DNA of 64,000 nucleotides from a virus, in the IMG/VR virus record IMGVR_UViG_3300007513_000007, positions 32,001 to 96,000 of that record. One strand, written 5' to 3'. Shown here in pieces: positions 1 through 16,483 of this stretch. Position 1 is the first letter of the stretch. Each line of letters starts with the position of its first letter. The notes below the pieces were generated by a model. The model did not search any database and was not told the DNA's origin. It saw nothing but the letters and a program-made list of their open reading frames with translations. Both the position numbers and the translations under genes were made by a program.

Positions 1-299
1 TTGTAGATGATCTTCTGCCGCTTCTGGTCCACGGAGCCTTTGTCTGTAAGACGGCCCCACTGACGAAGCAGCTTGTAGCCACCGCCCTGTTCCGGGGTGA
101 TCAACTGCTCATAGAACTTGGAACTGTTCTTCGCTCGATCCAGGAACCAGACCATCGTGGCCATGCCGTCACGCACGGAGTTCTTATTCACGCCTGGGGT
201 AAGAGCGCCACGACGCGCTTCCTTCAGTAGTGGAAGCAGGTGGGCACGGAGTTCCGGCTTCTCGTAAGCCAGCTTGATGCAAGCGATGCGAAGGTTCAT
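1..299 (-). CDS. WGR-domain-like protein with N-terminal LxxxIKLA..PELR..LLPLL tag (runs off window start)
   Basis: Manual translation from ATG 299: MNLRIACIKLAYEKPELRAHLLPLLKEA...NSSKFYEQLI...YKLLRQWGRL; the N..KFY..L...WGR pattern matches WGR domains; RBS GGAG upstream. Confidence 0.75.
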   Translation of the reverse strand, partial: MNLRIACIKLAYEKPELRAHLLPLLKEARRGALTPGVNKNSVRDGMATMVWFLDRAKNSSKFYEQLITPEQGGGYKLLRQWGRLTDKGSVDQKRQKIIY

Positions 300-354
300 G
301 GGGTTCTCCAGAAATGTTTGCTGTTCGTTCGGTATAGGCTGTTGATTCAAGGGG

Positions 355-732
355 TTACCCGTCCACGTTTACAAAGGCGTAGACACGAGCACCGCTGGAA
401 TCAGGATCCAGGGCGACGACGAGGGAACCGGTGAGCGTTCTTTCGTAGTCCTCGGCGTTGGGGTCATCGTTCTCCATCGTGAGGTTAGAGAACATGCGGC
501 CACCCATCGCCTTCGTCACCTTTCGATCAATCTCCAGAGATCCGGGACGAGCCATCGGGTAGTGCTTCAAGAACATCTTTTCGATGTCCCGAGGTTTGAG
601 GTTGACTTCAAACTTCGAGAAGATCGGAACCTTGTCCACCGCCCCTTGCTTCAGGATCGGGAGGAGGTCCTCCCTAAGCTCAGGGCGGGCATGAGCCAGC
701 TTGATGAGCTTTTCGCGTAGGGGATCTGACAT
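355..732 (-). CDS. hypothetical protein with N-terminal LREKLIKLAHARPELREDLLPIL tag
   Basis: 125 aa ORF, RBS AAGGAG, shares leader with 1..299. Confidence 0.85.
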   Translation of the reverse strand: MSDPLREKLIKLAHARPELREDLLPILKQGAVDKVPIFSKFEVNLKPRDIEKMFLKHYPMARPGSLEIDRKVTKAMGGRMFSNLTMENDDPNAEDYERTLTGSLVVALDPDSSGARVYAFVNVDG

Positions 733-764
733 AGCAGGGTGCTCCTTCTCGGAACCCTACCGGA

Positions 765-779
765 ATAGACACTTCACCG
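765..779 (-). promoter_or_regulatory. class II motif CGGT-N7-CTAT (putative late promoter)
   Basis: CGGTGAAGTGTCTAT about 33 nt upstream of the 732 start. Confidence 0.55.
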
Positions 780-788
780 AAGCAGAGG

Positions 789-803
789 CGGTAAACCGCC
801 TAT
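789..803 (+). promoter_or_regulatory. class II motif CGGT-N7-CTAT (putative late promoter)
   Basis: CGGTAAACCGCCTAT upstream of the 850 start. Confidence 0.55.
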
Positions 804-849
804 CAAACACGGACGGTGGTAGCAGAACCACCTGATCCCTTGGAAGAAG

Positions 850-2028
850 ATGGAAAACCCCTCCTCTAATCGCGTAGCGACTGCCTTTTTACGGAAGGCC
901 CGTCACAGCATGAAGATCAGGGGCATGAGTCCCATCGACATGCTGGGCCGGATACGAGACCTCTCCGATTTGATCAAAGGTGGTGCTGACCATCTGTGGG
1001 AGGGGCGCAACACCCCTGATCCCACGCCTGCCCAGGTGAAGGCTTGGAGACAAGAGCGTAAAGCTCTCCTGGAGTTGTTTGGTCAGTTCGAGTTGGGTGC
1101 AGTGCATCTGCATGACATCAAGGACTGGAAGATGTACCAGAAGATGAAGGTGGCCTATGGCGGTTATCCGGGCGGCCCCGGTCAGTACGGGGACGCAACC
1201 GAGGACCCAAGCATCTACCATGAAGAGGAGGTGGACCCCTGCGAGGAGAACCCCGAGTACATCGGCATGTCACTGGATGATGTAGTTGGGTGTGCCCCCG
1301 ATGCGGTCGATGATTGGATGGAGGCTGCCGAAGGCGTCATGGCAGGCTTGAAAAGGCTCGGGTTCAAGGTGCGCGAGGGCAAGGATTGGCACGAGGACGG
1401 TCAACTCAGGATGAGGATTTTCATCCAGGGGCCGCTCGGAAAAGCCGAGATCGACATCACAGGGAACATCGACCCCAACGGACAACTCAAGAGGGGCTGG
1501 GGTCTTTACGCTGGGATCGTGAGGGGTGCCGACTGGTGGGACCTCAAGCATCTCAAGCACGGTGAGATCGAGATGGACGGCGGCAACGTCAGGCGGTTCG
1601 TCAAGAAGGTGCTGGATGTCTGGGCTGACGGCGGCATGAACCGCACCCGGAGGGCTTCTTCTAAGGCCAGTGCCGAGAGGGTCGCTGCCGCTTTCTTGAA
1701 GCAAGGATCATGGGAGATTCACAAGGAGTGGCAGGCTGCGTATCGTTCAGGGATGGGCGACATGCAGAAAAGATGGACCGCCCTACTCAATAAAGCAGGG
1801 CGACAGTTCAAGAAGGACGACTGGAAGCTGGAGCCTCAAAGCTGGCTTGGCCACTACAACCACGGCTCAGATGGCGCTCGCATGGACGGGATGTTGTTTT
1901 TTGAGGATCTCCGCAACGAGGCACGAGGCACACGCGAGACCGAAGACTGGCTGGAAGCGAACCTTGGCCTCAGCTACAACCTGACGGGTCGCGGCTACGG
2001 CAAGTGGTCCTTGAGCCTTGAAGAATAA
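850..2028 (+). CDS. multi-module hypothetical protein with two RVA tags
   Basis: 392 aa ORF; SSNRVATAFLRKA at N-terminus and SAERVAAAFLKQG internally. Confidence 0.85.
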   Translation: MENPSSNRVATAFLRKARHSMKIRGMSPIDMLGRIRDLSDLIKGGADHLWEGRNTPDPTPAQVKAWRQERKALLELFGQFELGAVHLHDIKDWKMYQKMKVAYGGYPGGPGQYGDATEDPSIYHEEEVDPCEENPEYIGMSLDDVVGCAPDAVDDWMEAAEGVMAGLKRLGFKVREGKDWHEDGQLRMRIFIQGPLGKAEIDITGNIDPNGQLKRGWGLYAGIVRGADWWDLKHLKHGEIEMDGGNVRRFVKKVLDVWADGGMNRTRRASSKASAERVAAAFLKQGSWEIHKEWQAAYRSGMGDMQKRWTALLNKAGRQFKKDDWKLEPQSWLGHYNHGSDGARMDGMLFFEDLRNEARGTRETEDWLEANLGLSYNLTGRGYGKWSLSLEE

Positions 2029-2251
2029 GGGAGTTCAGAATGTCTGAAGCAGGAATGGTTGCATGTAAGATCGGGCTTCAAGCTCCCGTAGCCGCCCCCG
2101 GCTGAAATCAGTTGGGCGTAGCTATCGCCGCTATGGGCATCAAGATCGACAACGCTACGATTGCCCAGCATGTCTGGGACGGTATCAAGTCCGGTTACAC
2201 GGAAGTAGACAGCCTGAGTGAATACCTGTGCCGGGAAATGGGCGCGGACGG

Positions 2252-2536
2252 CTAACCCTCGACCATGTTCAGGAGCACTTGCTCCCCTACTACGTCCTCG
2301 ATGGTGTCTGCGATATGGCACGCGGCCTCATCCAAGATCGTATCGGGTGCATAGTGGGCACGCGGGGACGGGACCCACTGACTCTTGAACACAGTGACCC
2401 AAGCAGCCGTGTTCTCGTTGTACTTCTGAATCATCGTGCGGATTCGGTTCTTACGGGCCTCAACACAGCACCGCAACGGAAGCACTATCTCTACGTCTTT
2501 GACGAGGTACGAAGTCTCCACCCACTTCGACTTCAC
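2252..2536 (-). CDS. hypothetical protein
   Basis: 94 aa ORF, protein-like composition; start uncertain. Confidence 0.5.
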   Translation of the reverse strand: MKSKWVETSYLVKDVEIVLPLRCCVEARKNRIRTMIQKYNENTAAWVTVFKSQWVPSPRAHYAPDTILDEAACHIADTIEDVVGEQVLLNMVEG

Positions 2537-2641
2537 AGAGCAAATCCAAAAACTTGAGCGGCTGGCATATACACCTCGGGGAGTCAGCCCTTTTGAATAC
2601 GGTTTTCGCCGTTCAGAAAGACCCCCCTCTGTGGAGGCGCT

Positions 2642-3070
2642 TTATCTCCAGAGTTGAACCGTAGGGGGCTTGCCTTCGCCTCCCCAGGAAACCGACACAG
2701 CGATTCGGATGTAGCCTTTCCATGCTCGAATCTCCATTTCGTTGCCGACCATCCCTTCGTACCGATTCATTCCACCACGGCCCCATCCTTCCTTCTTCAG
2801 CTTCTTGATCTTGGCCAAGGCGCGGGCCATAGCATCCCACTCCTCCTTCACCCTGACCTCATGCGTGACGACCCTGGTCATGGACTCAAGCGTGTACTCG
2901 TGCCTGCCCGTTTGGCTGTCTACGCCCTGGTAGATGAAAGACCGTGTCCAGCCCTTTGCGGTCTTTTTCAAACCTGAAAGGATAGTCCTACGCTCCTCCG
3001 AACCTTTGGGGAGAGTAGAAGCGAGTCGAATGAGCTTCTTACGATCAGATCCGGTAAGGGTTTTAGACAT
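2642..3070 (-). CDS. hypothetical protein with N-terminal DRKKLIRLAS..PKGS.ERR.IL.GL tag
   Basis: 142 aa ORF; leader nearly identical to 3143..3433 but the body is unrelated. Confidence 0.85.
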   Translation of the reverse strand: MSKTLTGSDRKKLIRLASTLPKGSEERRTILSGLKKTAKGWTRSFIYQGVDSQTGRHEYTLESMTRVVTHEVRVKEEWDAMARALAKIKKLKKEGWGRGGMNRYEGMVGNEMEIRAWKGYIRIAVSVSWGGEGKPPTVQLWR

Positions 3071-3142
3071 AGGGGATTTCCTACAGGGTGTTTGTACTTG
3101 TGTCGGGGCAATAGGGAATCAACCAAGTTCGCGGAGCCATGC

Positions 3143-3433
3143 TTACTTACCAAACGCACCGCGAATGTCTCGGAAAGCGAGTTCCACAGCAGCTTCAGCC
3201 AGACGGTAAGCGTCTGGGCCGTAGACCCCATGCTTCTGCAAAGCAGGGTACATCACGTCGTACCATGCTTTCTTGGGTGACAGTCGCGCAGTCTTGTCGG
3301 TTTTTGGCTGAACCACACCCGAAGCCTTAGACAATCCAGCGAGGATAGCCTTACGCTCGGGGGAACCCTTCTCCATCGTGGAGGCGAGTCGAATGAGGGT
3401 TTTTCGATCTGAAGCGGTGAGGGTTTTAGACAT
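3143..3433 (-). CDS. hypothetical protein with N-terminal DRKTLIRLAS tag
   Basis: 96 aa ORF; duplicated 5-prime cassette shared with 2642..3070. Confidence 0.85.
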   Translation of the reverse strand: MSKTLTASDRKTLIRLASTMEKGSPERKAILAGLSKASGVVQPKTDKTARLSPKKAWYDVMYPALQKHGVYGPDAYRLAEAAVELAFRDIRGAFGK

Positions 3434-3488
3434 AGGGGATTTCCTATACGCAAGGGATTGGTTCTACCTTTGCTGGGCAATAGGGAAC

Positions 3489-3665
3489 CTACTGGTCAGT
3501 CTTGGGACGGGCGTCCTGCTCACTCTTGTTGAAAAGGTCGCCCTGTTCCCCCAAGCGTTGGAAAGCAGCAGAGGGATCTCGGGTCTGTGGCTTCTTGGGT
3601 GCCGTTCGCACCCGTTTCGTCACCACCTCAATCTCTTTGCCTTGTCTGTCCTTGATGATCTTCAT
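3489..3665 (-). CDS. small basic hypothetical protein (58 aa)
   Basis: Manual translation MKIIKDRQGKEIEVVTKRVR...; GAGG upstream; below ORF-track cutoff. Confidence 0.55.
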   Translation of the reverse strand: MKIIKDRQGKEIEVVTKRVRTAPKKPQTRDPSAAFQRLGEQGDLFNKSEQDARPKTDQ

Positions 3666-4033
3666 GTTGTTGTAGCCTCGCCTAAAAGGGTTTGAAAACA
3701 GTCTGCGATTTTCAATGCGGTTTCAATGTGCTGGATTTGAGCAAGATAGGGGTCCCAAAAAGTTTTCTGCGCGGTTCTACAAGGCTGTCCGTTGAAGGTC
3801 CTCGTTCGACTTGGCGAAGGCTCGCCTCATCCTTCGGGTGCCCTACGCCTCTCCCCAAGAACAGGTACGCCATGCAAGCCACGCGATCCCCGCAGGGACG
3901 TTACGCACGACGTACTCTGCATGGTCGGCACTGTGGGTGGAGGTGATGCAGCCGCGTAGCCATGCCAGGGCCAACGCCAACTCATCAGCCGTACCGCTGG
4001 CACCGCAGATCACCGCAGACACAGAGGCCCCAA

Positions 4034-4175
4034 GTTCGTTCGTTCGTTCGTCTTTTACGTCGTCACTCATAATGTTGAAATCCTCGGTTCCCATCTGATT
4101 CGTGTTCGTTCGAGTCGAACGAACGCGAACGAACTCAGAGCGGGTAGCTGTTCTCCCTGACTCGAACGAACGAAC
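4034..4175. repeat. GTTC/GAAC tetramer runs in inverted arrangement
   Basis: (GTTC)4 at 4034-4049; palindrome GTTCGTTCG-AGT-CGAACGAAC at 4104-4124; (GAAC)3 at 4164-4175. Confidence 0.8.
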
Positions 4176-4350: not shown

Positions 4351-4824
4351 CTACCCTCCCAAGGTAGACTTGAACGATACCCGTGGAGTCGGGTCCCTGT
4401 ACTCGATGGACTTGAGCAGCAGGTCACGGACTCCCGTAGAAGCCACCCTGGACTCGATGAGGTCAGGGAAGTTCTTACGGGGCTTATGCGTCACCACAGT
4501 CTCGAAGTAGGCCGAGAACTGGTCAGCACCCAGCAGAGCGATGAGGCTCTCGGTGTCAGCCGACTTGGCGAGTTTGACAGTCTTGCGGGGAATGGTGACC
4601 TTGACTTGGCCATCAGTGACAGGGAACTCATGGGTATAGGGGAGTTCACCCCCATTCCAGGTGTCTGCCACCTCTTCCCGCAGCCGGGTCTTCAGGGGTT
4701 CCAGGGCTGCCTGGATCTGGTCACCGATAGCAGCCAAGGCCAGAGCACTGGCTGCCACCTGTTCAGGGGTGCCGGTAGACACCAGCTTTCCTGCATCCTG
4801 GATCATTTCACGGATTGAGGACAT
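4351..4824 (-). CDS. hypothetical protein
   Basis: 157 aa ORF with RBS GAGGT. Confidence 0.8.
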   Translation of the reverse strand: MSSIREMIQDAGKLVSTGTPEQVAASALALAAIGDQIQAALEPLKTRLREEVADTWNGGELPYTHEFPVTDGQVKVTIPRKTVKLAKSADTESLIALLGADQFSAYFETVVTHKPRKNFPDLIESRVASTGVRDLLLKSIEYRDPTPRVSFKSTLGG

Positions 4825-4861
4825 GGTTTACCTCTACTGGTAGGGAGCCTACTGCTGGGAA

Positions 4862-5755
4862 TCAGCAGCAGGACTCATGGAACAGTCCCTTGCCCGGAAT
4901 GTGGATAGCGCCCTCTCCCTTGGAGATGATGCCGCCACAGGTGGAGCAGGGGGAATCGAAGTAGGCTTTGAGGGAGGTAGCACCCTCGGGAAGCGTCTTG
5001 TTGGCTTCAGGCTGGGCTGCTTCCGGCTCCTCTTCCTCGACCACAGGGGGAGTAGGAAGGATGCCACTGTTGGCTGCCTGCTCCCGAAGGCTCTGCTCGA
5101 AGCTGGCATCAGCCTGCTCCAGCAGGGAGGCCATCGTGGTGACAGCAGCAGCCTTGCAGGCTTCCAGCAAGGGGCAACCCTCACAGGACTTGGAGCGGGT
5201 AGAGAAGTGGCCGTAGCACCGGGTGCTCTCGATCTGGAGCCGATGCAGGTAGGCGTCTTCCACGACGTGCTGGCTCTTCTCCACAGGGGGAAGCCAGCAG
5301 ACACCCTCGTTGACTGCTTCTACAGTCAGGGTCTCGATGGCAGGAAGGGTAGCCTCTGCTGCCTCGTCCACGACGGGAGCCTCGGGAACCGTGTTCTCCA
5401 CCTCGTGAGGAGTGCTCTCATCACGGTAGGGGGTCTGGCTCTTGATGAGGTCCACACCAGCCTGGGTAGCCGCGTAGTAGCGACGACGAGGGCACTCGAT
5501 GAGAAACTCTTGCTTGAGGACACCAGCAGTCAGGGTGACTGCACGCTGGGCCTTGGGGTAGTTGGCGTTCTGGCCGCTACGGGTGGTCCCGTAAGCCATC
5601 CAGTCGATGCCGGGAACCAGAGTCTCGATGAAGTGGATGAGCCGGTCCCAGCCGACTTCGCGACCAGGGGCATAGCCGCTGGCTTCTACGATGGCGTGAA
5701 GGACGATGAGCCGCCACTGCTTGGGATAGTGGGCTTGGGGCTGGGAGTAGGTCAT
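4862..5755 (-). CDS. hypothetical protein, winged-helix-like N-terminus and Cys-rich modules
   Basis: 297 aa ORF; CYGH..C.GC...C and C-terminal CSTCGG..HESCC; RBS AGGAG. Confidence 0.8.
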   Translation of the reverse strand: MTYSQPQAHYPKQWRLIVLHAIVEASGYAPGREVGWDRLIHFIETLVPGIDWMAYGTTRSGQNANYPKAQRAVTLTAGVLKQEFLIECPRRRYYAATQAGVDLIKSQTPYRDESTPHEVENTVPEAPVVDEAAEATLPAIETLTVEAVNEGVCWLPPVEKSQHVVEDAYLHRLQIESTRCYGHFSTRSKSCEGCPLLEACKAAAVTTMASLLEQADASFEQSLREQAANSGILPTPPVVEEEEPEAAQPEANKTLPEGATSLKAYFDSPCSTCGGIISKGEGAIHIPGKGLFHESCC

Positions 5756-5824
5756 GTTCTCGGTCTCCTGTGGCCTGCTCCCGAAGGATGAGGCGAGAGG
5801 GTTGGGGTAGTGGGTCTTTCTCTA

Positions 5825-5852
5825 TACGAGGTGAAGGGGGGCGGGGAACCCC
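5825..5852 (-). promoter_or_regulatory. class I promoter motif GGGGTTCC-N16-CGTA
   Basis: exact match upstream of 5755. Confidence 0.8.
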
Positions 5853-5864
5853 CCTTCAGGGGGA

Positions 5865-7064
5865 TTAGTAGCTCTCCTCATCCAGAGCGCCACCAGACAG
5901 ATGGGGGTCGATGAGCCGACGGGCGATGAGCCGGTTGTCAGCATCCAGCTTGTGGGTCCAGGCGCGGAAGGCCCGAGCACCGAACTTGGAGGGCATCGAA
6001 TCGTCCCGGCGAAGCATACGCTCTGCACGGGAGAGGACCGAGCACAGGGCACGGTGGCTGAACTCTGCGTAAAGCTCATCCTTGTCGATGGCTTCGCGGA
6101 GAGCGCGAGTAGCGTTACCCACCTGCTCGATGAACTGGGGAGCCTTCTCGGCCAGGGCCGGGAACTTCTCACGGACGATGATGACCTCATCATCCCAGTG
6201 GAGGTAGGCGAACTGAACGGCGCTGTCGAAGCGGTCCAGGATGGAGGCGTCCAGGCAGCCTGCGCTGACCATACGGCCACGGTCATCACCGGAGCCATTG
6301 GTGTTGGCAGTAGCCACGAACTGCGTTCCGGGGAACACGCTCACGACCTCACCCTCGGGTCCGACGATACGGCCCTGCGTGCTGTCCATGAGCAGCCGAA
6401 GCCACTCGACCTGTGCCGGGTCAGCCCGGTCGAGGTCGGTGAGCACCACGATGGCGGGGCGAGCCACACCGTCACGGCCCATGACACCCTTGGTCACGAC
6501 GTTCCAGAGGTGGCCGAAGTCCCAGCCAGTGCCGTCCTTGTCCATCGAACGCTGGTAGAACCAGGGGCCAATGTCACGGTCAGGAACGATGTTGTTCATG
6601 ACGAGGGGCTTGCGAGCCATGCCAGAGAGGGCCAGCAGGAAGCCGTCCTTTCCGGTTCCGGGGAAGCCCCAGATGTAGACGTTGAGGCCATCAAGAATGT
6701 CCATGATGGCATCCTTCATCATTTCGCGGGCCTTACCCTTGGTGGGGAAGCGGTACGCCTCGGGGATCATGGCGCAGGTATCGGGGTCTGCACCAGCATC
6801 CACCTCGACCTTGAAGCCACAGGCATCGAAGGTCAGGTTGTCGATACCGGGGGCTGCGTTCCGACGCATACCCTTGAACTCGGTCTCGACATGGTCGAGG
6901 TAGTCCTGGCTCACCGTGGGAGCCTTGGGGTACGCAGCGACATACTCGTGCAGAGTCATGCCGTGGTCAGCCGCGAGGTGCGGTCCCAGGAAGTGAGACT
7001 TGTGCCCACAGCCGTCTACTTGGCACTCGGGGCGGGGGTCGATGAGCTTGGGGGTCGGGGTCAT
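5865..7064 (-). CDS. MoxR/CobS-like AAA+ ATPase with N-terminal Zn-finger-like segment
   Basis: Walker A GFPGTGKD, Walker B-like VVLTDLDR, ATANTNG sensor, LDASILDRF; N-terminal C..DGCGH..HL..DHGMTL.EY..YP. Confidence 0.9.
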   Translation of the reverse strand: MTPTPKLIDPRPECQVDGCGHKSHFLGPHLAADHGMTLHEYVAAYPKAPTVSQDYLDHVETEFKGMRRNAAPGIDNLTFDACGFKVEVDAGADPDTCAMIPEAYRFPTKGKAREMMKDAIMDILDGLNVYIWGFPGTGKDGFLLALSGMARKPLVMNNIVPDRDIGPWFYQRSMDKDGTGWDFGHLWNVVTKGVMGRDGVARPAIVVLTDLDRADPAQVEWLRLLMDSTQGRIVGPEGEVVSVFPGTQFVATANTNGSGDDRGRMVSAGCLDASILDRFDSAVQFAYLHWDDEVIIVREKFPALAEKAPQFIEQVGNATRALREAIDKDELYAEFSHRALCSVLSRAERMLRRDDSMPSKFGARAFRAWTHKLDADNRLIARRLIDPHLSGGALDEESY

Positions 7065-7125
7065 GGTCTGAATCTCCTATGAGCCTTGCTTTCGCTGGGC
7101 TACCAGGGTTGCTGTTCTCTCTCAC

Positions 7126-7153
7126 TACGGGGTGCCAGCCGAGGGGGAACCCC
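7126..7153 (-). promoter_or_regulatory. class I promoter motif
   Basis: exact match upstream of 7064. Confidence 0.8.
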
Positions 7154-7154
7154 C

Positions 7155-7295
7155 CTAACTAACTTTCACCGCCACAATATGCGGAGCATAGCCTTGGGCA
7201 ATCTCCTTGAACTCGGCCTTGCCGAAATGGGAATGGCACTTCCTGGTGCTCCAATGCACCGTCTTGCCGCTGTCGATGAACGTGATCTCCCACAT
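7155..7295 (-). CDS. small hypothetical protein (46 aa)
   Basis: MWEITFIDSGKTVHW...; RBS AGGAG. Confidence 0.65.
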   Translation of the reverse strand: MWEITFIDSGKTVHWSTRKCHSHFGKAEFKEIAQGYAPHIVAVKVS

Positions 7296-7305
7296 GGGGT
7301 ATCTC

Positions 7306-7476
7306 CTAAATACTGAAGTCGATGATGGCGATGCCGCGCTTGGGAGGGTCCTCGGAAGGGCGCTCCTGCTGCTCTTGGGGCCGACGAGGCTGCGGGGCAT
7401 GGATAGCGGGGCGCTCGCGCTCCTCACGGTTCTCACGCTCTTGTCGCAGTTTCTCGATTTGCCAGGGTTGAAGCAT
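7306..7476 (-). CDS. small charged hypothetical protein (56 aa)
   Basis: MLQPWQIEKLRQERE...; RBS AGGAG; class I motif upstream. Confidence 0.7.
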   Translation of the reverse strand: MLQPWQIEKLRQERENREERERPAIHAPQPRRPQEQQERPSEDPPKRGIAIIDFSI

Positions 7477-7497
7477 CGTTGAATCTCCTGCGCTCCT

Positions 7498-7525
7498 TAC
7501 GGGCCACGAAGGGGGCCGGAACCCC
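7498..7525 (-). promoter_or_regulatory. class I promoter motif
   Basis: exact match upstream of 7476. Confidence 0.8.
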
Positions 7526-7533
7526 CCTCGCAA

Positions 7534-7671
7534 CTACCGACCGAAGATGGCGTCTCCACGACGAATCTTGAAGATGCGGTAGATGTCCGCACGGACCTTG
7601 CCATCCTGTCCCACGGGGAGACGAACGAACACGGTACGACCGTTGACGGAAACCATAGTGAGCTTGGTCAT
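7534..7671 (-). CDS. small hypothetical protein (45 aa)
   Basis: MTKLTMVSVNGRTVFVRLP...; RBS AAGGAGG. Confidence 0.7.
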   Translation of the reverse strand: MTKLTMVSVNGRTVFVRLPVGQDGKVRADIYRIFKIRRGDAIFGR

Positions 7672-7691
7672 GACGACCTCCTTTCCCACTC

Positions 7692-7719
7692 TACGGGACA
7701 GTGCTGATTCGGGAACCCC
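7692..7719 (-). promoter_or_regulatory. class I promoter motif overlapped by a 12-bp inverted repeat
   Basis: exact match upstream of 7671; TGCTGATTCGGG/CCCGAATCAGCA at 7702-7730. Confidence 0.8.
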
Positions 7720-7808
7720 CCGAATCAGCAATCCAGGACCGCGCTGACAGCAACCGAGGATTTCAACACCACGGCGAGCTACCGCCGCGCCAACAAAGTT
7801 GCGCGACG

Positions 7809-7836
7809 GGGGTTCCCGCTACGCACAACTCCCGTA
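7809..7836 (+). promoter_or_regulatory. class I promoter motif
   Basis: exact match upstream of 7859. Confidence 0.8.
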
Positions 7837-7858
7837 GTGAGTCCATCAGGAGATCCCA

Positions 7859-8317
7859 ATGCTCATCAACGACGCCATCGTAGACCCCGCTGACATGATC
7901 GTGCCCGAGGTACGCTTCGCTGACAGCTATGAGGGGTCCCGTACCCCGAACCGGATCCGCTTCTGCGGTCGCTACGGTGACGGCTACAGTGCTGACTTCC
8001 TCTACCACCGGGGAACCGGCGTTGTCGTCCGTAAGGAAGAGGACGGCCTCTGGCGTGCGTCCTACAACGGTCGCCCCTCTATCTGGAATGGCTGGGTCCG
8101 AGAGACTCGCCCTTACATGGGCACGGGACTCTCCCTGTCCTGTAGCTGCCCCCGCGTGAAGCTCACCCAGGGCTTCAGGACTCGTCGGGAAGCTGCTCTT
8201 GCTGGTCTGGCCGTCGTCCGTAAGGAAGAGGCCCTCTGCCGCAACAGTGAGCGTGTGGACCGCAACCGCATCCGTAACAAGGCCGTGCTCACGAAGGATG
8301 GATGGCTGTATTCTTGA
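7859..8317 (+). CDS. hypothetical protein
   Basis: 152 aa ORF, RBS AGGAG. Confidence 0.8.
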   Translation: MLINDAIVDPADMIVPEVRFADSYEGSRTPNRIRFCGRYGDGYSADFLYHRGTGVVVRKEEDGLWRASYNGRPSIWNGWVRETRPYMGTGLSLSCSCPRVKLTQGFRTRREAALAGLAVVRKEEALCRNSERVDRNRIRNKAVLTKDGWLYS

Positions 8318-8320
8318 TGG

Positions 8321-8348
8321 GGGGTTCCCTGTCAGAAGTCGCCCCGTA
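8321..8348 (+). promoter_or_regulatory. class I promoter motif
   Basis: exact match upstream of 8377. Confidence 0.8.
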
Positions 8349-8376
8349 GTGAGTCTACAAGTTCAAGGAGAACCCA

Positions 8377-9726
8377 ATGGCCCCTCGCCCGAACAAAGCA
8401 GACGAATCCTGGCTCTCTGGAGCCAAGTACCGTGCAACCCACCAGAGCACCATCGACGGTGTGTTGGGTGCTGGTGTGCGCTCCGTCTCCAGCCGGGGGC
8501 AGAACTTCTACAACAAGGACAAGTGGCCTGCACGCCAGTTCACTGCTGCCTTCTGTAAGTGGGCTGCGTCCAACCCTGACAACAGCATCCCGCTGACCCC
8601 CGAGATCGTGCGGGCCTTCTGTCTGGCCGGGAACGAGGACCTCCCCTGTTGGGAGCACCCCGAGATCGTCATCGCCTCTACGCCTGACAACCTCTCTGCT
8701 TTCATGCGGGATGCTCTGGTTGGCGGTGGCTACCATGAGGCATGGCACACAGAGTACAGCCGTCGTGCTGACCTCGACGTGGCTGAAGTCTGGAACCGTA
8801 TCGAGTCCCTGTGGGGCCTCGTCCCGAACTGGGCACCCTACGTCAAGGCGTTGCTCACCTGGGGCAACATCATCGAGGACATTCGCATCGAGCGTTGCGG
8901 GTGCCGCAAGTACCCTGGCTCCCCCAAGAAGATGGAGGCTCTGCAAGACCTCATTCTCATGCAGGAAGAGAAGGGCCGTGAAGCCTCCGAGCACCGTGGG
9001 CTTCCCACGAACGATGACATGGCTACGGTTGTCGGCACCTTCCGGGACCTGGGCCTGGGATACGACACGACGCGCCAGAACGCCGCCTACACGCAGTACC
9101 AGCGCCGTAGCTCCCAAGGGTATGCCCTCGTCACTGAAGGCCCTCTGCGGCCCCTCCTGGACCGCGCAATCGCCCTTGGAGACGAGGATGACATGGAGCA
9201 CCTCTGGATCGCTATGGAAGTAGTGGCAGTGCTTGTGGCTCTCGGCCAGCCTCCCCAGGAAGGTGACGGTCCCGAAGGTGACGGTCCTGGCGATCCTCCT
9301 CAAGACCAGGATGCCACTTGCCCCAAGTGTCGGAGCAAGGACGTGGTGTACCGTCCCTCGCAGAAGGTCATCCACTGCAACGCCTGTGGCTTCGAGCAGA
9401 AGATGGAAGAAGGCGGCGGCGGCGGCGGCAAGGGACCTTCCGTGAACGTGAAGGTGGACCCCAACGATCCCGGTGCCCAAGACGAGGGTAGTGAGTCTGG
9501 TGAGTCCAGCGAGTCTGGCGAAGGTCAGGAAGGCGAAGGTCAGGAAGGCGAAGGCTCTGGCGAGGGCGGTAGCAGCGACAAGAAGCCTGTCTTCAAGGTC
9601 GGTGACCGTGCCCGAGTCAAGGCTGGCCCCCTGGCTGGCAAGACGGTCGAGGTGACCTCTGCCTCCGCACCTGACAGCGAGGGTAACCAGGAACTTCAGT
9701 ACGCAGTGGTGGAGGATGCAGCGTAG
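8377..9726 (+). CDS. CobT-like N-terminal half: HExxH domain, Zn ribbon, acidic linker, KOW-like tail
   Basis: YHEAWH, NIIEDIRIE, CPKC..CNAC, G/E-rich linker, FKVGDRARVKAGPLAGKTVEV. Confidence 0.8.
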   Translation: MAPRPNKADESWLSGAKYRATHQSTIDGVLGAGVRSVSSRGQNFYNKDKWPARQFTAAFCKWAASNPDNSIPLTPEIVRAFCLAGNEDLPCWEHPEIVIASTPDNLSAFMRDALVGGGYHEAWHTEYSRRADLDVAEVWNRIESLWGLVPNWAPYVKALLTWGNIIEDIRIERCGCRKYPGSPKKMEALQDLILMQEEKGREASEHRGLPTNDDMATVVGTFRDLGLGYDTTRQNAAYTQYQRRSSQGYALVTEGPLRPLLDRAIALGDEDDMEHLWIAMEVVAVLVALGQPPQEGDGPEGDGPGDPPQDQDATCPKCRSKDVVYRPSQKVIHCNACGFEQKMEEGGGGGGKGPSVNVKVDPNDPGAQDEGSESGESSESGEGQEGEGQEGEGSGEGGSSDKKPVFKVGDRARVKAGPLAGKTVEVTSASAPDSEGNQELQYAVVEDAA

Positions 9727-9754
9727 GGGGTTCCCCCTCCCTCGTTGCCCCGTA
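9727..9754 (+). promoter_or_regulatory. class I promoter motif
   Basis: exact match between the two CobT-like halves. Confidence 0.8.
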
Positions 9755-9775
9755 GAGAGTCCAAGGAGAGTTCTC

Positions 9776-11185
9776 ATGTCTATGTCCATTCTGCTCAAGC
9801 TCGGTGAAGCCATCTTTGGCACCAACAACGACCTGTCCCTCATCAGCGATGGTGAAGGTGGAGAGGGCACTGATGGTGACGGCGAAGGCGAGGGCGGTGA
9901 GCAGGACGGCCCCGAAGGTGGCGACGAAGGCCAGCCCGGTGACGGTGAGGGCAAGGACGGCGAAGGGAAGGGCAAGGGCCAACCCCAAGCTGGAAATGAG
10001 TTCTCTGGCGAGATTGGCGAAGGTGACACCACCTCTGACACCACAGGCCAGCACACCAACGGCGCTGGCGGGCACTGTGATTCAGGCTCTGCCCGTGACG
10101 ACAGGGCTATTGCCCAAGCACTCCTCGCAGCCATCGAGAACGGCGAACTGTCCGGTCTGGTGGACAACAACGATGCTCTTGGTGACGCCTTGGGTGAACT
10201 CCGGGACAAGGACCAGCCCTGTGAGGATAACGAGAAGCCCTGGAACCCCTATGACCGCTCCTCTGACACCGTAGAGCTTGTGAGAGCGCGTTCTGGTGAC
10301 AAGGAGCACGCTCTGCGCCTTGCCAACTCGGTGAAGAAGGAAGTGGCTGCTATCCGCACACGCCTCCGTTCCAAGTTCCTCCAGAACCGTGGTCGCCGCA
10401 CCATTCATGGTGTTCAGAACGGTCGTGGACTGTCCGAGCGCCGTCTGGTCCAGAGCATGGTCGAGATCACCGCAGGGTCCCGTCCTACTCGCCCTGACTA
10501 CACCAAGGTTCGCAAGCCTGACTGCTCGCTGGCTGTGGCCATCGTCCTCGATGAGTCTGGTTCAATGGGAAGCCACCTCCGGGATGCCTCTCGCGCCATG
10601 ATGGCGATTGCAGAGCCTCTGGATGCAGTGGGCGCTCCGGTCATGGCCATCGGCTTCCGTGATAGCAGCGGTTCGGGACACCACCCCAACCGTGACGAGA
10701 TTTATGCTCCCGACGGCAGCTACAACTTCCATCGCTGGGGAAGCATCCGCATCGACGTGTTCAAGCAGTGGGACGAGAAGTGGCGCAAGGTGATGCCCCG
10801 TATGGCGCGTACACGGGCCACAGGAGGCACTCCGATGTCTGATGGCGTCCAGTATGCCCTCCAGGCCCTCTCCGAGCGTCCAGAGCGCCACAGGGTCATG
10901 CTGGTCATCACTGATGGCTACCCGAATGGAGGCCACGCAGAGGTCATCAAGCGCCAGATCCGTATCGCACGGGAAGCAGGTATCGCTATCGTCGGTATCG
11001 GCATCGACTCGGGCTGCGATGCAGTGTCCCACCACTTCGACCTCTCGGTTCAGTGCCACGACATCTCCCAGCTTCCCAAGAACCTGCTGGACGTGCTGGA
11101 GGAGATCGTCTTCCCCTCCAAGTCCAAGAAGGCTGTCATCGACACCAAGATGAAGCAGTTGAAGGGGCGCAGGAAGAGTGCTTGA
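9776..11185 (+). CDS. VWA-domain protein (CobT-like C-terminal half)
   Basis: MIDAS LDESGSM, GGTPM, LVITDG; acidic G/D/E-rich N-terminus; start re-picked at ATG 9776 after AAGGAG. Confidence 0.9.
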   Translation: MSMSILLKLGEAIFGTNNDLSLISDGEGGEGTDGDGEGEGGEQDGPEGGDEGQPGDGEGKDGEGKGKGQPQAGNEFSGEIGEGDTTSDTTGQHTNGAGGHCDSGSARDDRAIAQALLAAIENGELSGLVDNNDALGDALGELRDKDQPCEDNEKPWNPYDRSSDTVELVRARSGDKEHALRLANSVKKEVAAIRTRLRSKFLQNRGRRTIHGVQNGRGLSERRLVQSMVEITAGSRPTRPDYTKVRKPDCSLAVAIVLDESGSMGSHLRDASRAMMAIAEPLDAVGAPVMAIGFRDSSGSGHHPNRDEIYAPDGSYNFHRWGSIRIDVFKQWDEKWRKVMPRMARTRATGGTPMSDGVQYALQALSERPERHRVMLVITDGYPNGGHAEVIKRQIRIAREAGIAIVGIGIDSGCDAVSHHFDLSVQCHDISQLPKNLLDVLEEIVFPSKSKKAVIDTKMKQLKGRRKSA

Positions 11186-11219: not shown

Positions 11220-11226
11220 TAGAGGT

Positions 11227-12013: not shown

Positions 12014-12820
12014 ATGACCATCGACGCCACCAACGCATCTTCCTTCGCCACCGCAGCCGCTCTCGCAGAAGCTCGGAACGGCACCTTCACCGGCCTGATC
12101 ACCACCAAGCGTGGCAAGGTCGTGGGTGGAACCCTCTACGGTGACGACACCGTTCACGCCGTCATCATCACTGGCTTCAGCTACATGGGTCTGGTCGAGC
12201 GTTCGCTCGCCAAGCTCCAGGCCATGTCTGCTGCTGACCTCGCTGCCCTCGTGGCCGACGGTCGGGAAGGCTACGACAGCCGCAAGAAGACTGCGAGCCT
12301 CGTGGCCCTCACTCAGGCTGACTACGTTGCCGCTCGCGATGCCCTCGTGGCTTCCTTCCAGAAGACTCTGGCGGGCACCAACAGCGCCACGACCGATCAC
12401 GTCTATGAGTCCCTTCAGGTTCTCCACGACGACGGCACGGTCGAGAGCGTCCGGGGCGCACGGGTCTACCGCTGCGTGGCTTCCAACCCCAACCACGAGT
12501 GCAAGTGCCGCGACTGCTCCGGTGACAAGCGTGCCCCCGTGGACGGTCAGGTGAACCTCTCTGGCCTGCTCATCGGCTCCAAGGTCATCACTGCTGCTGC
12601 TAACGGCCCCAAGCCTGCTGCCCGGAGTGGCGTGGCGACCGTCGCCAAGAACGCTCTTCGGAGCCGCCTGCCCATCAGCCGCTACGTCAGCTACCGTCTG
12701 GAGCAGGGTGGTTCCTGGATTCTGAACGCAGGTGGCACCGCTGCCGCAGCCGCCACCAACGGTGCGGTGACCTTCAACGAGGACCGTGTGGCTGATGCCC
12801 TCGACCTCCTGGTTGCCTAA
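12014..12820 (+). CDS. hypothetical protein (Ala/Thr-rich, C..C..H.C.C..C cluster)
   Basis: start re-picked at ATG 12014 after AAGGAG; strongly biased codon usage. Confidence 0.85.
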   Translation: MTIDATNASSFATAAALAEARNGTFTGLITTKRGKVVGGTLYGDDTVHAVIITGFSYMGLVERSLAKLQAMSAADLAALVADGREGYDSRKKTASLVALTQADYVAARDALVASFQKTLAGTNSATTDHVYESLQVLHDDGTVESVRGARVYRCVASNPNHECKCRDCSGDKRAPVDGQVNLSGLLIGSKVITAAANGPKPAARSGVATVAKNALRSRLPISRYVSYRLEQGGSWILNAGGTAAAAATNGAVTFNEDRVADALDLLVA

Positions 12821-12840
12821 ACCTCAACCTCTAACCAACT

Positions 12841-12868
12841 GAACCCCCGTCCCTGTGGCGGGGGTTCT
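12841..12868 (+). terminator. hairpin, probable terminator
   Basis: GAACCCCCG/CGGGGGTTC stem just after the 12820 stop; its 3-prime arm doubles as a degenerate class I -35 box. Confidence 0.55.
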
Positions 12869-12919
12869 TGCGTCTCGTGTCCGGGTAGTAGAGGGAGGGC
12901 CTCTTGCTGGAGGTGTGCC

Positions 12920-13246
12920 ATCCCTATCTGGCCCAACACAGAACCCGGAACACAACAGAGCACCATTCTCGACTGGCTCTATGAGAACGGTCCAGACTTC
13001 ACCCCCACCACCGCCTCCATCGCTGATCACCTTGGGTTCGAGCGCAAGTACCGAACCAAGCGTGGCAAGGGTGGGTCAGTGCAGTGGCAACTGATCGCGG
13101 ATCCTGACGTGAACCTGGAGGCCCACGAGGAGCATCTCCTCGCCCACAAGATCCAGGAGGTACGGATGCGACGACTCGAACAACGCATCAAGGTTCTCGA
13201 AGACTTGATCCTGGAGATGGGGTCCCGCCTCGAAGACGCTCCATAG
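12920..13246 (+). CDS. HTH-like/coiled-coil hypothetical protein, non-canonical start
   Basis: Open frame IPIWPNTEPGTQQSTILDWLYENG..TTASIADHLG..RMRRLEQRIKVLEDLILEMG; GGAGG lies 6 nt before ATC 12920; no in-frame ATG/GTG/TTG near the 5-prime end. Confidence 0.6.
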   Translation: MPIWPNTEPGTQQSTILDWLYENGPDFTPTTASIADHLGFERKYRTKRGKGGSVQWQLIADPDVNLEAHEEHLLAHKIQEVRMRRLEQRIKVLEDLILEMGSRLEDAP

Positions 13247-13256
13247 GGGACAACCC

Positions 13257-13478
13257 TTATTCAGAGTCGCTGGAGTCGCGTTTCTTGGTGAGCAGTCCGA
13301 GCGCAGCACGAGCAATCATGACAGTTCCAGCAAGCTGGTGCGCCGCCTCGCCGCTTTGGATGACGCCCTTGGCTTGGTCCCACCACACCGAGAGTTGAGC
13401 ACAAGCTCCAAAGGCACGAGCCACCTTGACAGGGTCATGGCCGCAGGCGGGGCAAGGTCGATGGGATCGGTCAGTCAT
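13257..13478 (-). CDS. hypothetical protein with CPAC motif
   Basis: 73 aa ORF, RBS GGAGG. Confidence 0.7.
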   Translation of the reverse strand: MTDRSHRPCPACGHDPVKVARAFGACAQLSVWWDQAKGVIQSGEAAHQLAGTVMIARAALGLLTKKRDSSDSE

Positions 13479-13511
13479 TCTCTTCCCTCCTCCCTACGAA
13501 GACAAAAGGCT

Positions 13512-13648
13512 CACCACCGGCAGTGGTCTGCAACACCACCGGCAGTGGTTTCCTGAAGCAACGCGGGAGTCACACCCACCTGTCCCGAGACGACACGAAG
13601 CGACAAGAGACGACAAGAGACGACAAGAGACGACACGAGGTGTCCCGA
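13512..13648. repeat. 16-bp direct repeat x2 plus 10-bp tandem repeat x5
   Basis: CACCACCGGCAGTGGT at 13512 and 13534; CGACA(A/C)GA(G/A)(A/G) at 13591-13640 flanked by TGTCCCGA. Confidence 0.85.
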
Positions 13649-13832
13649 CGGGATGGACAAGAACTGGTTTGTCCGTCCCGTCGGCAGCCTGAATCAGTTT
13701 CACTGTGCCCATGCAGCCGAGCGTCACACGAGAACTCGCCAGCGATTTTGCTGGCGAACCCCGTTCGGTATGATTTCAACACCAGCTTGATGGCTGCTAC
13801 CCATAATCGCCGTTTTCAGCGTTCTACGAGAG

Positions 13833-14501
13833 GTGGTTCATATCGAAACACCTCTCACGCAACATGGACAACCCCCCGTGAAACTCCCCGCAAGCAACAC
13901 CCCAAGCAACACGGAGCCAGTAAGCCTCGCGGTGTCCCTACTGAACCAACCCTTCCTTCAGTACGAGAGGAAGCCTGCTACACAGAAAGCTCTCTCTGGA
14001 CCGCCTACGGACCCAACGTGGTGGATTCCATACAGGGACAGGGCACTCCTACATACATGCCTATGGACAGGGTGGGGTATGAACCCTCTCCTCCAGGTAT
14101 CCCTACAGCAAGCAAAGGACGCCCTCGAAGACTCTCCACTTGCTTCAAGCCTCATCCCCGAACCTCTATGGAACGACTGCTGGGAATCTCTCCAGCTATG
14201 GGAACAGGCAGCCAACCTCCTGGTATGCACACCCAAGCATCGCTACTGTGGAAATCACCTGCTATTCATCTCCCGAAAGCACACAGACCTTTCCAGGTAT
14301 CCCGGAGGACGTGTCTCTTGCAGGGAGTCTCTCTGGCGCACCTTCCACCGAATCAGGGAGGGACTCACCATCACGGAGATCCAGGAAGTGAGTGCTTCTC
14401 TCTCTGAAGTGTCTGGTATCAGTCTTCCCTCTCCCCCTCCAAGCAGACCTCGGGTATTCACTCCGCGATCTATGGCCCTGTGGCTCTCCTCGCAGAAGTA
14501 G
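13833..14501 (+). CDS. possible hypothetical protein
   Basis: 222 aa frame ends just before a class I motif, but codon usage is atypical and the start is unclear. Confidence 0.35.
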   Translation: MVHIETPLTQHGQPPVKLPASNTPSNTEPVSLAVSLLNQPFLQYERKPATQKALSGPPTDPTWWIPYRDRALLHTCLWTGWGMNPLLQVSLQQAKDALEDSPLASSLIPEPLWNDCWESLQLWEQAANLLVCTPKHRYCGNHLLFISRKHTDLSRYPGGRVSCRESLWRTFHRIREGLTITEIQEVSASLSEVSGISLPSPPPSRPRVFTPRSMALWLSSQK

Positions 14502-14502
14502 G

Positions 14503-14530
14503 GGGGTTCTTACTGCTCTCCAAAAACGTA
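14503..14530 (+). promoter_or_regulatory. class I promoter motif (GGGGTTCT variant)
   Basis: N16 spacing to CGTAGAGAG upstream of 14560. Confidence 0.75.
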
Positions 14531-14559
14531 GAGAGCAAGAAGACAAGGAGTTGATCCCC

Positions 14560-15021
14560 ATGCCCTCTGACCTCTACGACCTCTTTGGAACCAAGACCGA
14601 GGGACCTGCGGGTGCCCCTTACACCAAAGGGTCCATCACCTCTATGGAAGCTGCTGAAGCCATCGCTGACGTTGCTGGTAGGCTACGCAGGCAGGTGTAC
14701 CAGTACATCGTGTCCTGTGGCGCTTCAGGCACTACGGATGATGCTGCTGAAGTAGCCCTCGACATGAAGCACACCACTTACACTGCCCGTAGGGGTGAAC
14801 TGGTCAAGCGGGGACTCGTTGCTGACTCTGGGCACAAGGCAAAGACCCGTTCTGGCCGTAGGGCTACCATCTGGGTTGCCGTGAACCCCAAGAACGCTGC
14901 GAACCTCAAGGAAGTGTCGGACCTCAACAAGATCCGCACCAAGCTGAAGGGCAAGGTCAGCAAGATGTCCGAGGAACAGTGCGAAAAGGTCCTCAACGCC
15001 ATTGAAGGCTGGGGGCTGTAG
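14560..15021 (+). CDS. winged-helix DNA-binding protein
   Basis: RRQVYQYIV..GTTDD..EVALDMKHTTYTARRGELVKRGLV.DSG..TRSGR.A.IW; RBS AAGGAG. Confidence 0.8.
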   Translation: MPSDLYDLFGTKTEGPAGAPYTKGSITSMEAAEAIADVAGRLRRQVYQYIVSCGASGTTDDAAEVALDMKHTTYTARRGELVKRGLVADSGHKAKTRSGRRATIWVAVNPKNAANLKEVSDLNKIRTKLKGKVSKMSEEQCEKVLNAIEGWGL

Positions 15022-15026
15022 CGCAT

Positions 15027-15251
15027 ATGTCTGATTGGGAACACCAACACACGATGGGGGAGATCCAAGAACCCTTGAAGGTCGAACTCGATGAGAACGG
15101 TACGACCCTCTTTGACATCAACCTGGGCAGCTATGTCCTCTTTGATGGCGAGGGTCGGTGTCTCCTCATCCAGAAGGACTTGCCCTTCCCCCCGGAGTAC
15201 TTGCCTGACGAGTACACCATCCTCCAGGTCGTGGAGAAGGTCGAGAAGTAG
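15027..15251 (+). CDS. hypothetical protein
   Basis: 74 aa ORF downstream in operon. Confidence 0.7.
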   Translation: MSDWEHQHTMGEIQEPLKVELDENGTTLFDINLGSYVLFDGEGRCLLIQKDLPFPPEYLPDEYTILQVVEKVEK

Positions 15252-15254
15252 GGC

Positions 15255-15716
15255 TTACCCCAGGATCTGCAAAGGCCCCGGCCCCACATCCAGAACCGCA
15301 TCGCACTCCCAGACATACTCAAAGCCTGAGTCCGTCAGCCTGAACCACACCGTGGTGTTGTCCGCTGTACGCCTGCCACGAAAGAGCATGTTCTCAGCCG
15401 GGGGAGGGAACTCTTCGTCTGTGTGGTACTGGGAGGTATGAAGCCCGTCGATTCCGGGCATCTCGTGCCCTACGCTTGGCTCCCACCCGCGTCCCCGGCC
15501 CAACTCGTACTGCTCTCGAACGTGTGCGTTGCTGGAAACATTGCTGACGAGGTGCCATGTCAGGAACCTTTCCGGGCCTTCCCACCTGCTGATGCACCCC
15601 TCGAAGCCTTCCTCAAGCTGGATGACGCCGATGGAGTAGCCTGACGGGTGGGGATTTACGGTTTGGGCTTCTTCGCGGCTTAGCGAGTTGTAGCCATCGT
15701 CACTGTGTAGGCGCAT
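15255..15716 (-). CDS. hypothetical protein
   Basis: 153 aa ORF, RBS GGAGG, class I variant upstream. Confidence 0.75.
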   Translation of the reverse strand: MRLHSDDGYNSLSREEAQTVNPHPSGYSIGVIQLEEGFEGCISRWEGPERFLTWHLVSNVSSNAHVREQYELGRGRGWEPSVGHEMPGIDGLHTSQYHTDEEFPPPAENMLFRGRRTADNTTVWFRLTDSGFEYVWECDAVLDVGPGPLQILG

Positions 15717-15741
15717 GGTGCTCCCCTCCTTCTACCCTCCT

Positions 15742-15805
15742 TACGGGGGAATCCGAATCGTGGAACCTACGAGAGTGGGGGTTCCCCCTGGCTTTTCGAG
15801 CCGTA
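15742..15805. promoter_or_regulatory. divergent pair of class I motifs
   Basis: TAGGTTCC-N16-CGTA minus at 15742-15769; exact match plus at 15778-15805. Confidence 0.75.
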
Positions 15806-15813
15806 GGGAACTC

Positions 15814-15990
15814 ATGGACACTTACAAATCCCGCATCATCAAATGCCCTGGCCGCAGATGCTTCTGCTTTGGCCCCGGCTACCCCTGCGACCGTGAATCC
15901 TCAAGCAAACGCAAGGCTGCCCGTCTTGCCCGTCGTCGCCTCAAAACCGACGACCGCAAAACCTTCCGACGCCACACCCTTCCTCGTTAG
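15814..15990 (+). CDS. small Cys/Arg-rich protein (58 aa)
   Basis: MDTYKSRIIKCPGRRCFC...KRKAARLARRRLK; directly after a class I motif. Confidence 0.6.
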   Translation: MDTYKSRIIKCPGRRCFCFGPGYPCDRESSSKRKAARLARRRLKTDDRKTFRRHTLPR

Positions 15991-16027
15991 GGTTCCTATC
16001 CGCACCTACGGGTATAGGAGAACCCTC

Positions 16028-16483
16028 ATGAAGACACCCTCACCTATCCCTTCGCTCCCAACCGACAGGAAGGGGTTGATTCGCATGGCTTCGGAACTCC
16101 CCCTCGGTGACCGGAAGCGTAGAGCTATCCTGTCTGGGTTGAAGGCTGGCGCTGGGAAGACCGCCAAGATTGACGACGAGGATCTAAACAAGGTTCTCAT
16201 TGTGATGAAGGCTCATGTAAGCAGACGCCCTGACAAGGGTTGGCGGATGATGGCCGCGCCCGAAGACGCGGCTTCTGGGCCAGCCGATTCTGGCATTGTC
16301 GCTGACTGGCTGGGCTGGGGTGGCGGTGCAGCTACAACTGCTTTGAGGGTGCTTCAGAGACAAGGGCTTGTGAACTCTGTAAAGGGCCGCACACGCAAGA
16401 ATCGGTGGTATTTGACCCCCAAGGGTTTGCAAGCGGCGGTGAGGGCGAAGACCACAACGAAACTGGCCCAGAAGAAGCCCTGA
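16028..16483 (+). CDS. winged-helix-like protein with DRKGLIRMAS..RRAILSGL tag
   Basis: start ATG 16028 after AGGAG; TALRVLQRQGLV..WYLTPKG; class II variant CGTT-N7-CTAT at 15985-15999. Confidence 0.8.
   Translation: MKTPSPIPSLPTDRKGLIRMASELPLGDRKRRAILSGLKAGAGKTAKIDDEDLNKVLIVMKAHVSRRPDKGWRMMAAPEDAASGPADSGIVADWLGWGGGAATTALRVLQRQGLVNSVKGRTRKNRWYLTPKGLQAAVRAKTTTKLAQKKP

Follow-up and report, generated by a model that had tools for sequence, protein, structure and literature searches.

The encapsulation peptides of bacterial microcompartments and encapsulins are short amphipathic helices at either terminus of a protein that serve as cargo addresses. The internal proteins of phage T4 are diverse defence proteins that have only a targeting sequence in common (PMC3012670); this capsid targeting sequence (CTS), present on IPI-III and Alt, has 10-20 residues, is strictly N-terminal and is cut by gp21 at x-x-E (PMC3012670, PMC5694885), and Alt is a packaged ADP-ribosyltransferase (PMC5512222). 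The scaffolding protein of phage P22 carries a C-terminal coat-binding hairpin of 30 residues that docks on the shell via R293 and K296 (PMC9965877), and packaging is predicted for the polyvalent proteins of phages and conjugative elements, multi-domain effectors with peptidase domains that are found near portal and terminase genes (PMC5512222). Here we describe the LIRLA module, a two-helix peptide of about 35 amino acids that occurs in two subtypes and heads five open reading frames (ORFs) in a stretch of 64,000 nucleotides from an uncultured huge phage (IMG/VR record IMGVR_UViG_3300007513_000007, bases 32001-96000 of a 180.6-kb contig, G000, estimated to be ~40% complete). This whole stretch is called the window below. 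The module represents a so far undescribed and very large family of portable two-helix tags.

A profile built from the five copies, as a previous sequence-only reading of the window had proposed, recovers all five ORFs in a six-frame translation of the contig (E 1e-24 to 3e-13) together with a sixth copy, while background matches start at about E 0.08-0.09. Subtype 1 (LIKLA...PELR..LLP.LK) is present on the gene at 1..299 (minus strand; 260 amino acids, with the 5' part in the window and 483 nucleotides past the left edge) and on the gene at 355..732 (minus strand; 125 amino acids, P0002). Subtype 2 (DRK.LIR(L/M)AS..P.G...R(R/K).IL.GL) is present on the tandem pair 2642..3070 (minus strand; 142 amino acids, P0001, E 1e-24) and 3143..3433 (minus strand; 96 amino acids, P0003) and on 16028..16483 (plus strand; 151 amino acids, P0004); the chief difference between the subtypes is a loop that is three residues shorter in subtype 1. 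In the same order of genes, the module is encoded by nucleotides 210-299 (residues 1 to about 30), 634-732, 2951-3070, 3317-3433 and 16028-16159. The sixth copy forms the extreme C-terminus of a 153-amino-acid protein encoded 4.5 kb left of the window (genome 27009-27470), which ends ...ALIRLASTLPVGDEKRRAILSGLVR-stop. When the four subtype-2 copies are compared in pairs, 15-19 residues are identical and 9-13 of them are encoded by different codons, so it is the peptide that is conserved and not the DNA.

The proteins behind the module are unrelated, as the sequence-only reading had it: in an all-against-all BLASTP comparison of the five bodies no pair scores below E 0.7. Its assignment of a WGR domain to the 1..299 gene is also correct (PF05406, 31.3 bits at a cut-off of 22, residues 48-124; nucleotides 1-158 inside the window). 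The remaining four are orphan bodies with no Pfam or PHROG match; for P0002 only four near relatives were found, and P0006 and P0007, relatives of P0001, have nothing but the module in common with it. For the body of 16028..16483 a winged helix had been proposed, and this is a lead only: its ESM features are similar to those of winged helix-turn-helix families at 0.90-0.92, but an AlphaFold2 (AF2) model from the single sequence is unusable (pLDDT 49) and a search for homologues of the body found none.

The family is far larger than the window suggests. An exhaustive profile search over 1.84 billion representative proteins, with clusters at 50% identity, matches the module in 1,333 clusters at E<=1e-3; word-indexed homology searches return a handful of relatives, and the exhaustive search is needed to find the rest. 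Positions and conservation were counted in the representatives of the best 150 of these clusters. The 243 copies mapped in them are N-terminal in 130 cases, internal in 80 and C-terminal in 33, and 78 of the 150 proteins have several copies (two in 63, three in 15). With 113 of these 243 copies internal or C-terminal and a C-terminal one in this contig, the module is not the strictly N-terminal leader that it had been taken for; that it is real, portable, some 30-35 residues long and attached to unrelated cargo is borne out. Recognisable cargo among the representatives includes ADP-ribosyltransferase and pentapeptide repeats, next to the WGR domain of this genome. At least 52 IMG/VR loci carry the module, mostly contigs of 30-297 kb; five large relatives have 24, 12, 6, 7 and 7 matches (24 in one 297-kb contig), and their module genes are often same-strand tandem arrays of small genes. 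In 17 of the 150 representatives, the module runs directly into a mini-motif, A-G-C-E-K-L-P-x-G-P-M-R-D-N-C-E-K-K, with two Cys 12 apart. These representatives are not from this genome; several of the 18 sites of the mini-motif are in a conserved family of 500-930 amino acids (for example P0019, P0020, P0066 and P0091) that also terminates in a short C-terminal copy, ALIRLA..LP.GS.ERKTILRMA.

The module appears to be restricted to phages: when 596 Gb of genomes of bacteria and archaea were scanned with a strict degenerate pattern, one true copy and one chance match came up. The true copy is N-terminal (L058:2181-2224) and lies on the 15.5-kb contig RGPS01000140.1 of a metagenome-assembled genome of Terriglobia. 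This contig may belong to a prophage or to a phage that was binned in error, and it may hint at a host.

The consensus of about 35 residues reads (M-S-K-x-L)-T-A-S-D-R-K-A-L-I-R-L-A-S-x-L-P-K-G-S-E-E-R-R-A-I-L-A-G-L-K-K-x-A; conservation reaches 90% or more at seven positions, and constraint is clear at about 25. AF2 modelled a natural 87-amino-acid protein with two modules as two helix-turn-helix hairpins (helices 6-17/24-34 and 57-68/75-85) with pLDDT above 90, in agreement with the helix hairpin of the sequence-only reading; the packing of the two modules on each other is not confident (pTM 0.36). A sequence profile search of the PDB returned nothing below E 0.07, a Foldseek search of the PDB with the two-module model nothing below E 2, and a search of the ESM Atlas with nothing but the module as query no more than generic helical hairpins.

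The sequence-only reading had further proposed that the leader ends in a cleavage site, K-x-A/G. A KTA or KAS tail is indeed present in the window copies. Family-wide, the tail past the final G-L is weak (K 46%, any residue, A 36%) and lies inside or at the end of predicted helix 2; Gly is not enriched downstream of the module (a small-Gly dipeptide within six residues in 26% of copies, 14% in the background), neither GG, GA nor GS was found as a site after it and no x-x-E motif of the T4/phiKZ type is conserved in the 20 residues past it. For these reasons we consider the proposed site weak. A related sequence was noticed in the LIRLA protein encoded after the portal gene of the relative G001 (L057:4818-5834): GLKTAS occurs three times, twice inside a 22-residue repeat, with one occurrence at the very C-terminus. 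It echoes the G-L-K-K-T-A of the module tail and could be a processing site.

The window also encodes a shorter tag, the RVA tag, with which the module had been thought to have some kinship. This holds in use: the two tags interchange. The gene at 850..2028 (plus strand; 392 amino acids) has RVA tags at the N-terminus and at an internal junction, and its homologue P0037 has a LIRLA module at both of these sites, the N-terminus and residue 190. The two proteins are 53% identical over the body (BLAST, E 2e-43), and BLAST aligns ...NRTRKASSDRQALIRLASALPKGG of P0037 with ...NRTRRASSKASAE-RVAAAFLKQG of the window protein, the alignment crossing ...NRTR(K/R)AS... into IRLASAL and ERVAAAF, respectively. 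Module and RVA tag are swapped at identical junctions of homologous proteins, which is newly seen here. The tag behind the C39-like peptidase domain varies in the same way: it is LIRLA in the locus L034 and RVA-like in this contig, while the protein of the relative G005 ends in an RVA tag. In G001, the protein after the C39-like peptidase (L060:3504-5003) opens with a hybrid tag, MNFTASTLRLASLRVAFHH, and the RVA tag in general resembles helix 1 of the module (R-h-A-x-x-h). The two leader families are therefore variants of a single system. RVA tags are not enriched inside the LIRLA-bearing representatives (3 observed, 2.2 expected).

The C39-like peptidase connects the module with the packaging genes. 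As Pfam searches of this contig for terminase and capsid gave no match, the large terminase subunit (TerL, genome 16717-18603, plus strand) and the portal protein (genome 19901-21604, plus strand) were located only via proteins of G001 that match them. Beyond them, the plus-strand operon continues with a ferritin-like gene, a C39-like peptidase gene, an RVA-tagged protein and, as the last gene, the one with the C-terminal module; the module genes of the window come 10-27 kb after the portal gene. The peptidase gene (genome 23859-25802, plus strand, 6-8 kb left of the window; L001:9859-11802) encodes 647 amino acids: an N-terminal C39-like domain (PF13529, E 5.5e-12), after which RVA-like tags occur in a stretch of about 470 residues. 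In five such proteins the domain is found with E 5.5e-12 to 2.5e-4, four of the five scoring above the cut-off, and Q15, C21, H104 and D121/N123 are invariant, suggesting that the enzyme is catalytically intact.

The peptidase is kept in four of the five large relatives. It is encoded 0-4.3 kb from a module gene and on the same strand in nine of the 52 IMG/VR loci as well as in this genome, so that all ten contigs with the peptidase have a module gene within 4.3 kb of it; the peptidase gene usually lies beside terminase and portal genes. In G001, G004 and G005 a module gene directly precedes that of the peptidase, in G001 a LIRLA gene follows immediately 3' of the portal gene, and in L034 peptidase and module are fused, the operon there consisting of an RVA protein, a protein with two LIRLA modules, the C39-LIRLA fusion, two further genes, TerL and portal. 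The proteins with two modules ahead of the peptidase were scanned in L034 and G001, and both contain a domain above the Pfam cut-off for Fusello_VP2_Capsid, the family of the DNA-binding protein packaged in fusellovirus particles. This and the WGR domain agree with the proposal that some of the cargo binds nucleic acid. The link between the module and a tagged C39-like peptidase next to packaging genes appears to be made here for the first time.

Two proteins of these head regions deserve a separate mention. The TerL of L034 (L034:5857-8637) has 926 amino acids, compared with 636-642 elsewhere, owing to about 300 extra residues between two TerL-matching blocks, most likely an intein. Just upstream of the head protease in the head block of G001 (L056:2816-6580) is a gene for a protein of 1,255 amino acids with RVA-like tags, in which a HAD domain of the 'Swiss Army Knife' RNA-repair type is joined to a eukaryotic-type topoisomerase I catalytic core (PF01028, E 3e-24).

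What is the module for? We give about an even chance to its being a docking tag that works at any position in a protein and has a single conserved partner in the phage, of which the assembling head is the most likely. The docking function is suggested by portability together with constraint, because the same conserved module is found on unrelated bodies in 1,333 clusters. The tag would tether many unrelated and fast-changing accessory proteins to one phage-encoded partner, most likely in the scaffold core or the inner shell of the assembling head; the proteins would be packaged there, which could bring them into the next cell together with the DNA. The head as destination is partly supported by the tagged genes and the tagged peptidase in or beside the terminase-portal operon, and the ADP-ribosyltransferase, pentapeptide-repeat, WGR and Fusello_VP2-like domains fit with cargo that acts on arrival. 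The C39-like cysteine peptidase, which carries the same tags, would go to the same place and be a candidate for the processing enzyme, and the RVA tag would be a shorter, interchangeable form that resembles helix 1 of the module alone. A more far-reaching version, in which LIRLA, RVA and the tagged peptidase form an address-and-processing system that loads dozens of interchangeable effectors into the capsid for co-injection, is conceivable, even if we lean against it.

Several observations weigh against the head, or against a pure address tag. In G001, neither the head protease nor the scaffold-like or the major capsid protein has the module, and 23 of the 24 matches in this relative are more than 80 kb from its portal-to-capsid head block. 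A TerL or portal homologue is found within 10 kb of a module in seven of the 52 loci, about twice the chance expectation in genomes that are related to each other. A three-copy protein of 756 amino acids in G003 is encoded beside ribonucleotide reductase and a Dda/RecD-like helicase. There are ORFs of 43-66 amino acids that consist of the module only, which is odd for an address tag. No conserved protease site was found after the module, and the two-module AF2 model is silent on the partner. Lastly, a cultivated relative was not found: tblastn searches of 50,697 GenBank phages detected no module, and the same search with a CobS-like neighbour of the module genes detected no close relative of that protein.

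This neighbour belongs to a block at 4351-11185 of the window with two genes of unknown function, a CobS-like AAA+ ATPase (5865-7064) and a split VWA/CobT-like pair (8377-9726 and 9716-11185), and four other contigs (L006, L009/L053, L012, L013) show synteny of this block with LIRLA genes. It raises the possibility that the module serves docking or co-assembly on a hub other than the capsid, be it the machinery for replication or for transcription, the chaperone pair of CobS-like AAA+ and VWA proteins or a viral factory or condensate, or that the tag binds itself. Most module copies are indeed far from structural genes, the proteins with two or three copies resemble multivalent cross-linkers, and the module-only ORFs agree with such a role. 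Nevertheless, we consider such a hub unlikely: in most contigs that show both, the tagged peptidase and module genes adjoin TerL and portal, and a tag binding itself is not what the uncertain packing of the natural two-module protein suggests.

A minimal nucleic-acid-binding motif of the helix-hairpin-helix (HhH), SAP/HeH or ribbon-helix-helix (RHH) kind, which stays attached and tethers enzymes to DNA or RNA, would account for the five to six conserved basic residues, for the conserved P-K-G-S turn and for fusion partners that are often DNA-related (WGR, the possible winged helix, VP2-like and pentapeptide domains). We regard it as improbable. Searches with Pfam at E<=0.1 recovered no HhH, SAP, HeH, RHH or helix-turn-helix family apart from a chance-level HTH_20, PHROGs contained no match, and the PDB profile and Foldseek searches were equally empty; by all four, the leader is no known DNA-binding domain. 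An RHH domain has a beta strand ahead of two helices joined by a G-x-S/T/N turn and forms a dimer or a tandem pseudo-dimer. This reading is rejected: the AF2 model has no N-terminal strand and no confident pairing, and subtype 1 lacks both the Gly turn and residues ahead of helix 1 and is poorer in basic residues. Furthermore, all paralogues keep the same surface, unlike binders that are specific for different operators.

We see still poorer prospects for a true cleavable leader that the linked C39-like peptidase removes, as in the double-glycine leaders of bacteriocins, and that has no role in the virion. The intact catalytic residues of the peptidase and its linkage to module genes are what such a system requires, most copies are N-terminal, and internal copies usually have (K/R)(K/R)(A/G)(A/S) just ahead of them. 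However, the sequence behind the module offers neither Gly enrichment nor a double-glycine type site, internal and C-terminal copies are well conserved, and the peptidase itself is tagged, sometimes at its own C-terminus; an export gene was not recognised in the loci examined, where no dedicated search for an ABC exporter was made.

That the module is a DNA-level cassette of promoter, ribosome binding site (RBS) and first codons, spread by recombination and with an incidental peptide, is hardly credible and largely refuted by the codon analysis: despite a near-identical pair of segments in the window (3021-3083 and 3384-3446, upstream motif and RBS included), copies use different codons at half of the conserved residues, internal and C-terminal copies have neither promoter nor RBS and the amino acids are conserved across 1,333 clusters.

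The upstream motif itself, GxTTCCCTATTGCCC (class II), had been described, as such or as a near variant, for each of the five genes. It is clear upstream of 3070 and 3433, present as a variant before 16028 and weaker before 732, but the WGR gene has none: it starts 55 nucleotides after 355..732, with GGAGAA 7 nucleotides ahead of the ATG at 299. The near-identical segments comprise the promoter-like motif, the RBS and the first codons of the 3070/3433 tandem pair, and these appear to have been duplicated recently. As a 10-mer, the motif is not established as a promoter: this version has 17 sites in the contig with at most one mismatch, and about 11 are expected by our own arithmetic. Upstream of the 16028 gene the motif is part of a hairpin (15988..16027, plus strand; minimum free energy -21.4 kcal/mol, z -2.7), in which the left arm is the promoter-like motif GGGTTCCTAT and the right arm the GGAGAA RBS. 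A hairpin at 733-770 on the minus strand, just ahead of the start codon at 732, likewise encloses the GGAG of the RBS and has the promoter-like GGGTTCC motif as its left arm; the corresponding stems at 3070 and 3433 are weak.

If the docking tag is an address label, the genes that carry it would reveal, in one step, which proteins make up the accessory or injected proteome in a large clade of uncultivated phages, and the tag would also provide a handle to load foreign proteins into such capsids. If the complete loading system with RVA tag and peptidase is real, it would serve more than a thousand families of cargo in the clade as a whole, a cargo code far larger than the CTS of T4. The RVA interchange and the link to the peptidase turn a vague shared leader into a three-part system that can be tested. 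Should the tag lead somewhere other than the capsid, a module of 35 residues that is so strongly constrained in over 1,300 families of proteins still implies an important hub in the biology of huge phages.

Compared with the known systems, the module shares with double-glycine leaders and their C39 peptidases a helical peptide that is about 20-35 residues long, stands in most cases at the N-terminus and is found on diverse products, and an adjoining C39-family cysteine peptidase with conserved Q/C/H/D. It differs from them in having no GG, GA or GS site, in the many internal or C-terminal tags and in a peptidase that is itself tagged and encoded in a terminase-portal operon. The hairpin of the P22 scaffolding protein comes close in shape: a helix, an x-K-G-x turn and a basic second helix within about 30 residues, as in our AF2 model. 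The P22 hairpin is also portable in engineering use and may sit at the C-terminus, as the module can. However, hhalign of the module with the C-terminus of the P22 scaffold detects no homology (probability 0.1), the acidic scaffold-like protein of G001, encoded between protease and major capsid protein, has no module, and the carriers of the module are dozens of cargo proteins instead of a single scaffold. Unlike polyvalent proteins, the effectors are mostly separate small genes with a tag each and not one giant polypeptide, and, unlike polyvalent proteins and encapsulation peptides, the tag family itself is undescribed. The module further differs from the CTS of T4 in its length of about 35 residues, in its predicted fold, in its internal and C-terminal positions and in the absence of a conserved cleavage motif and of any sequence similarity, and encapsidation of the module proteins is a prediction. 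With the T4 system it shares a short common peptide on unrelated, fast-evolving accessory or defence proteins, an ADP-ribosyltransferase among the cargo and an organisation in variable tandem clusters.

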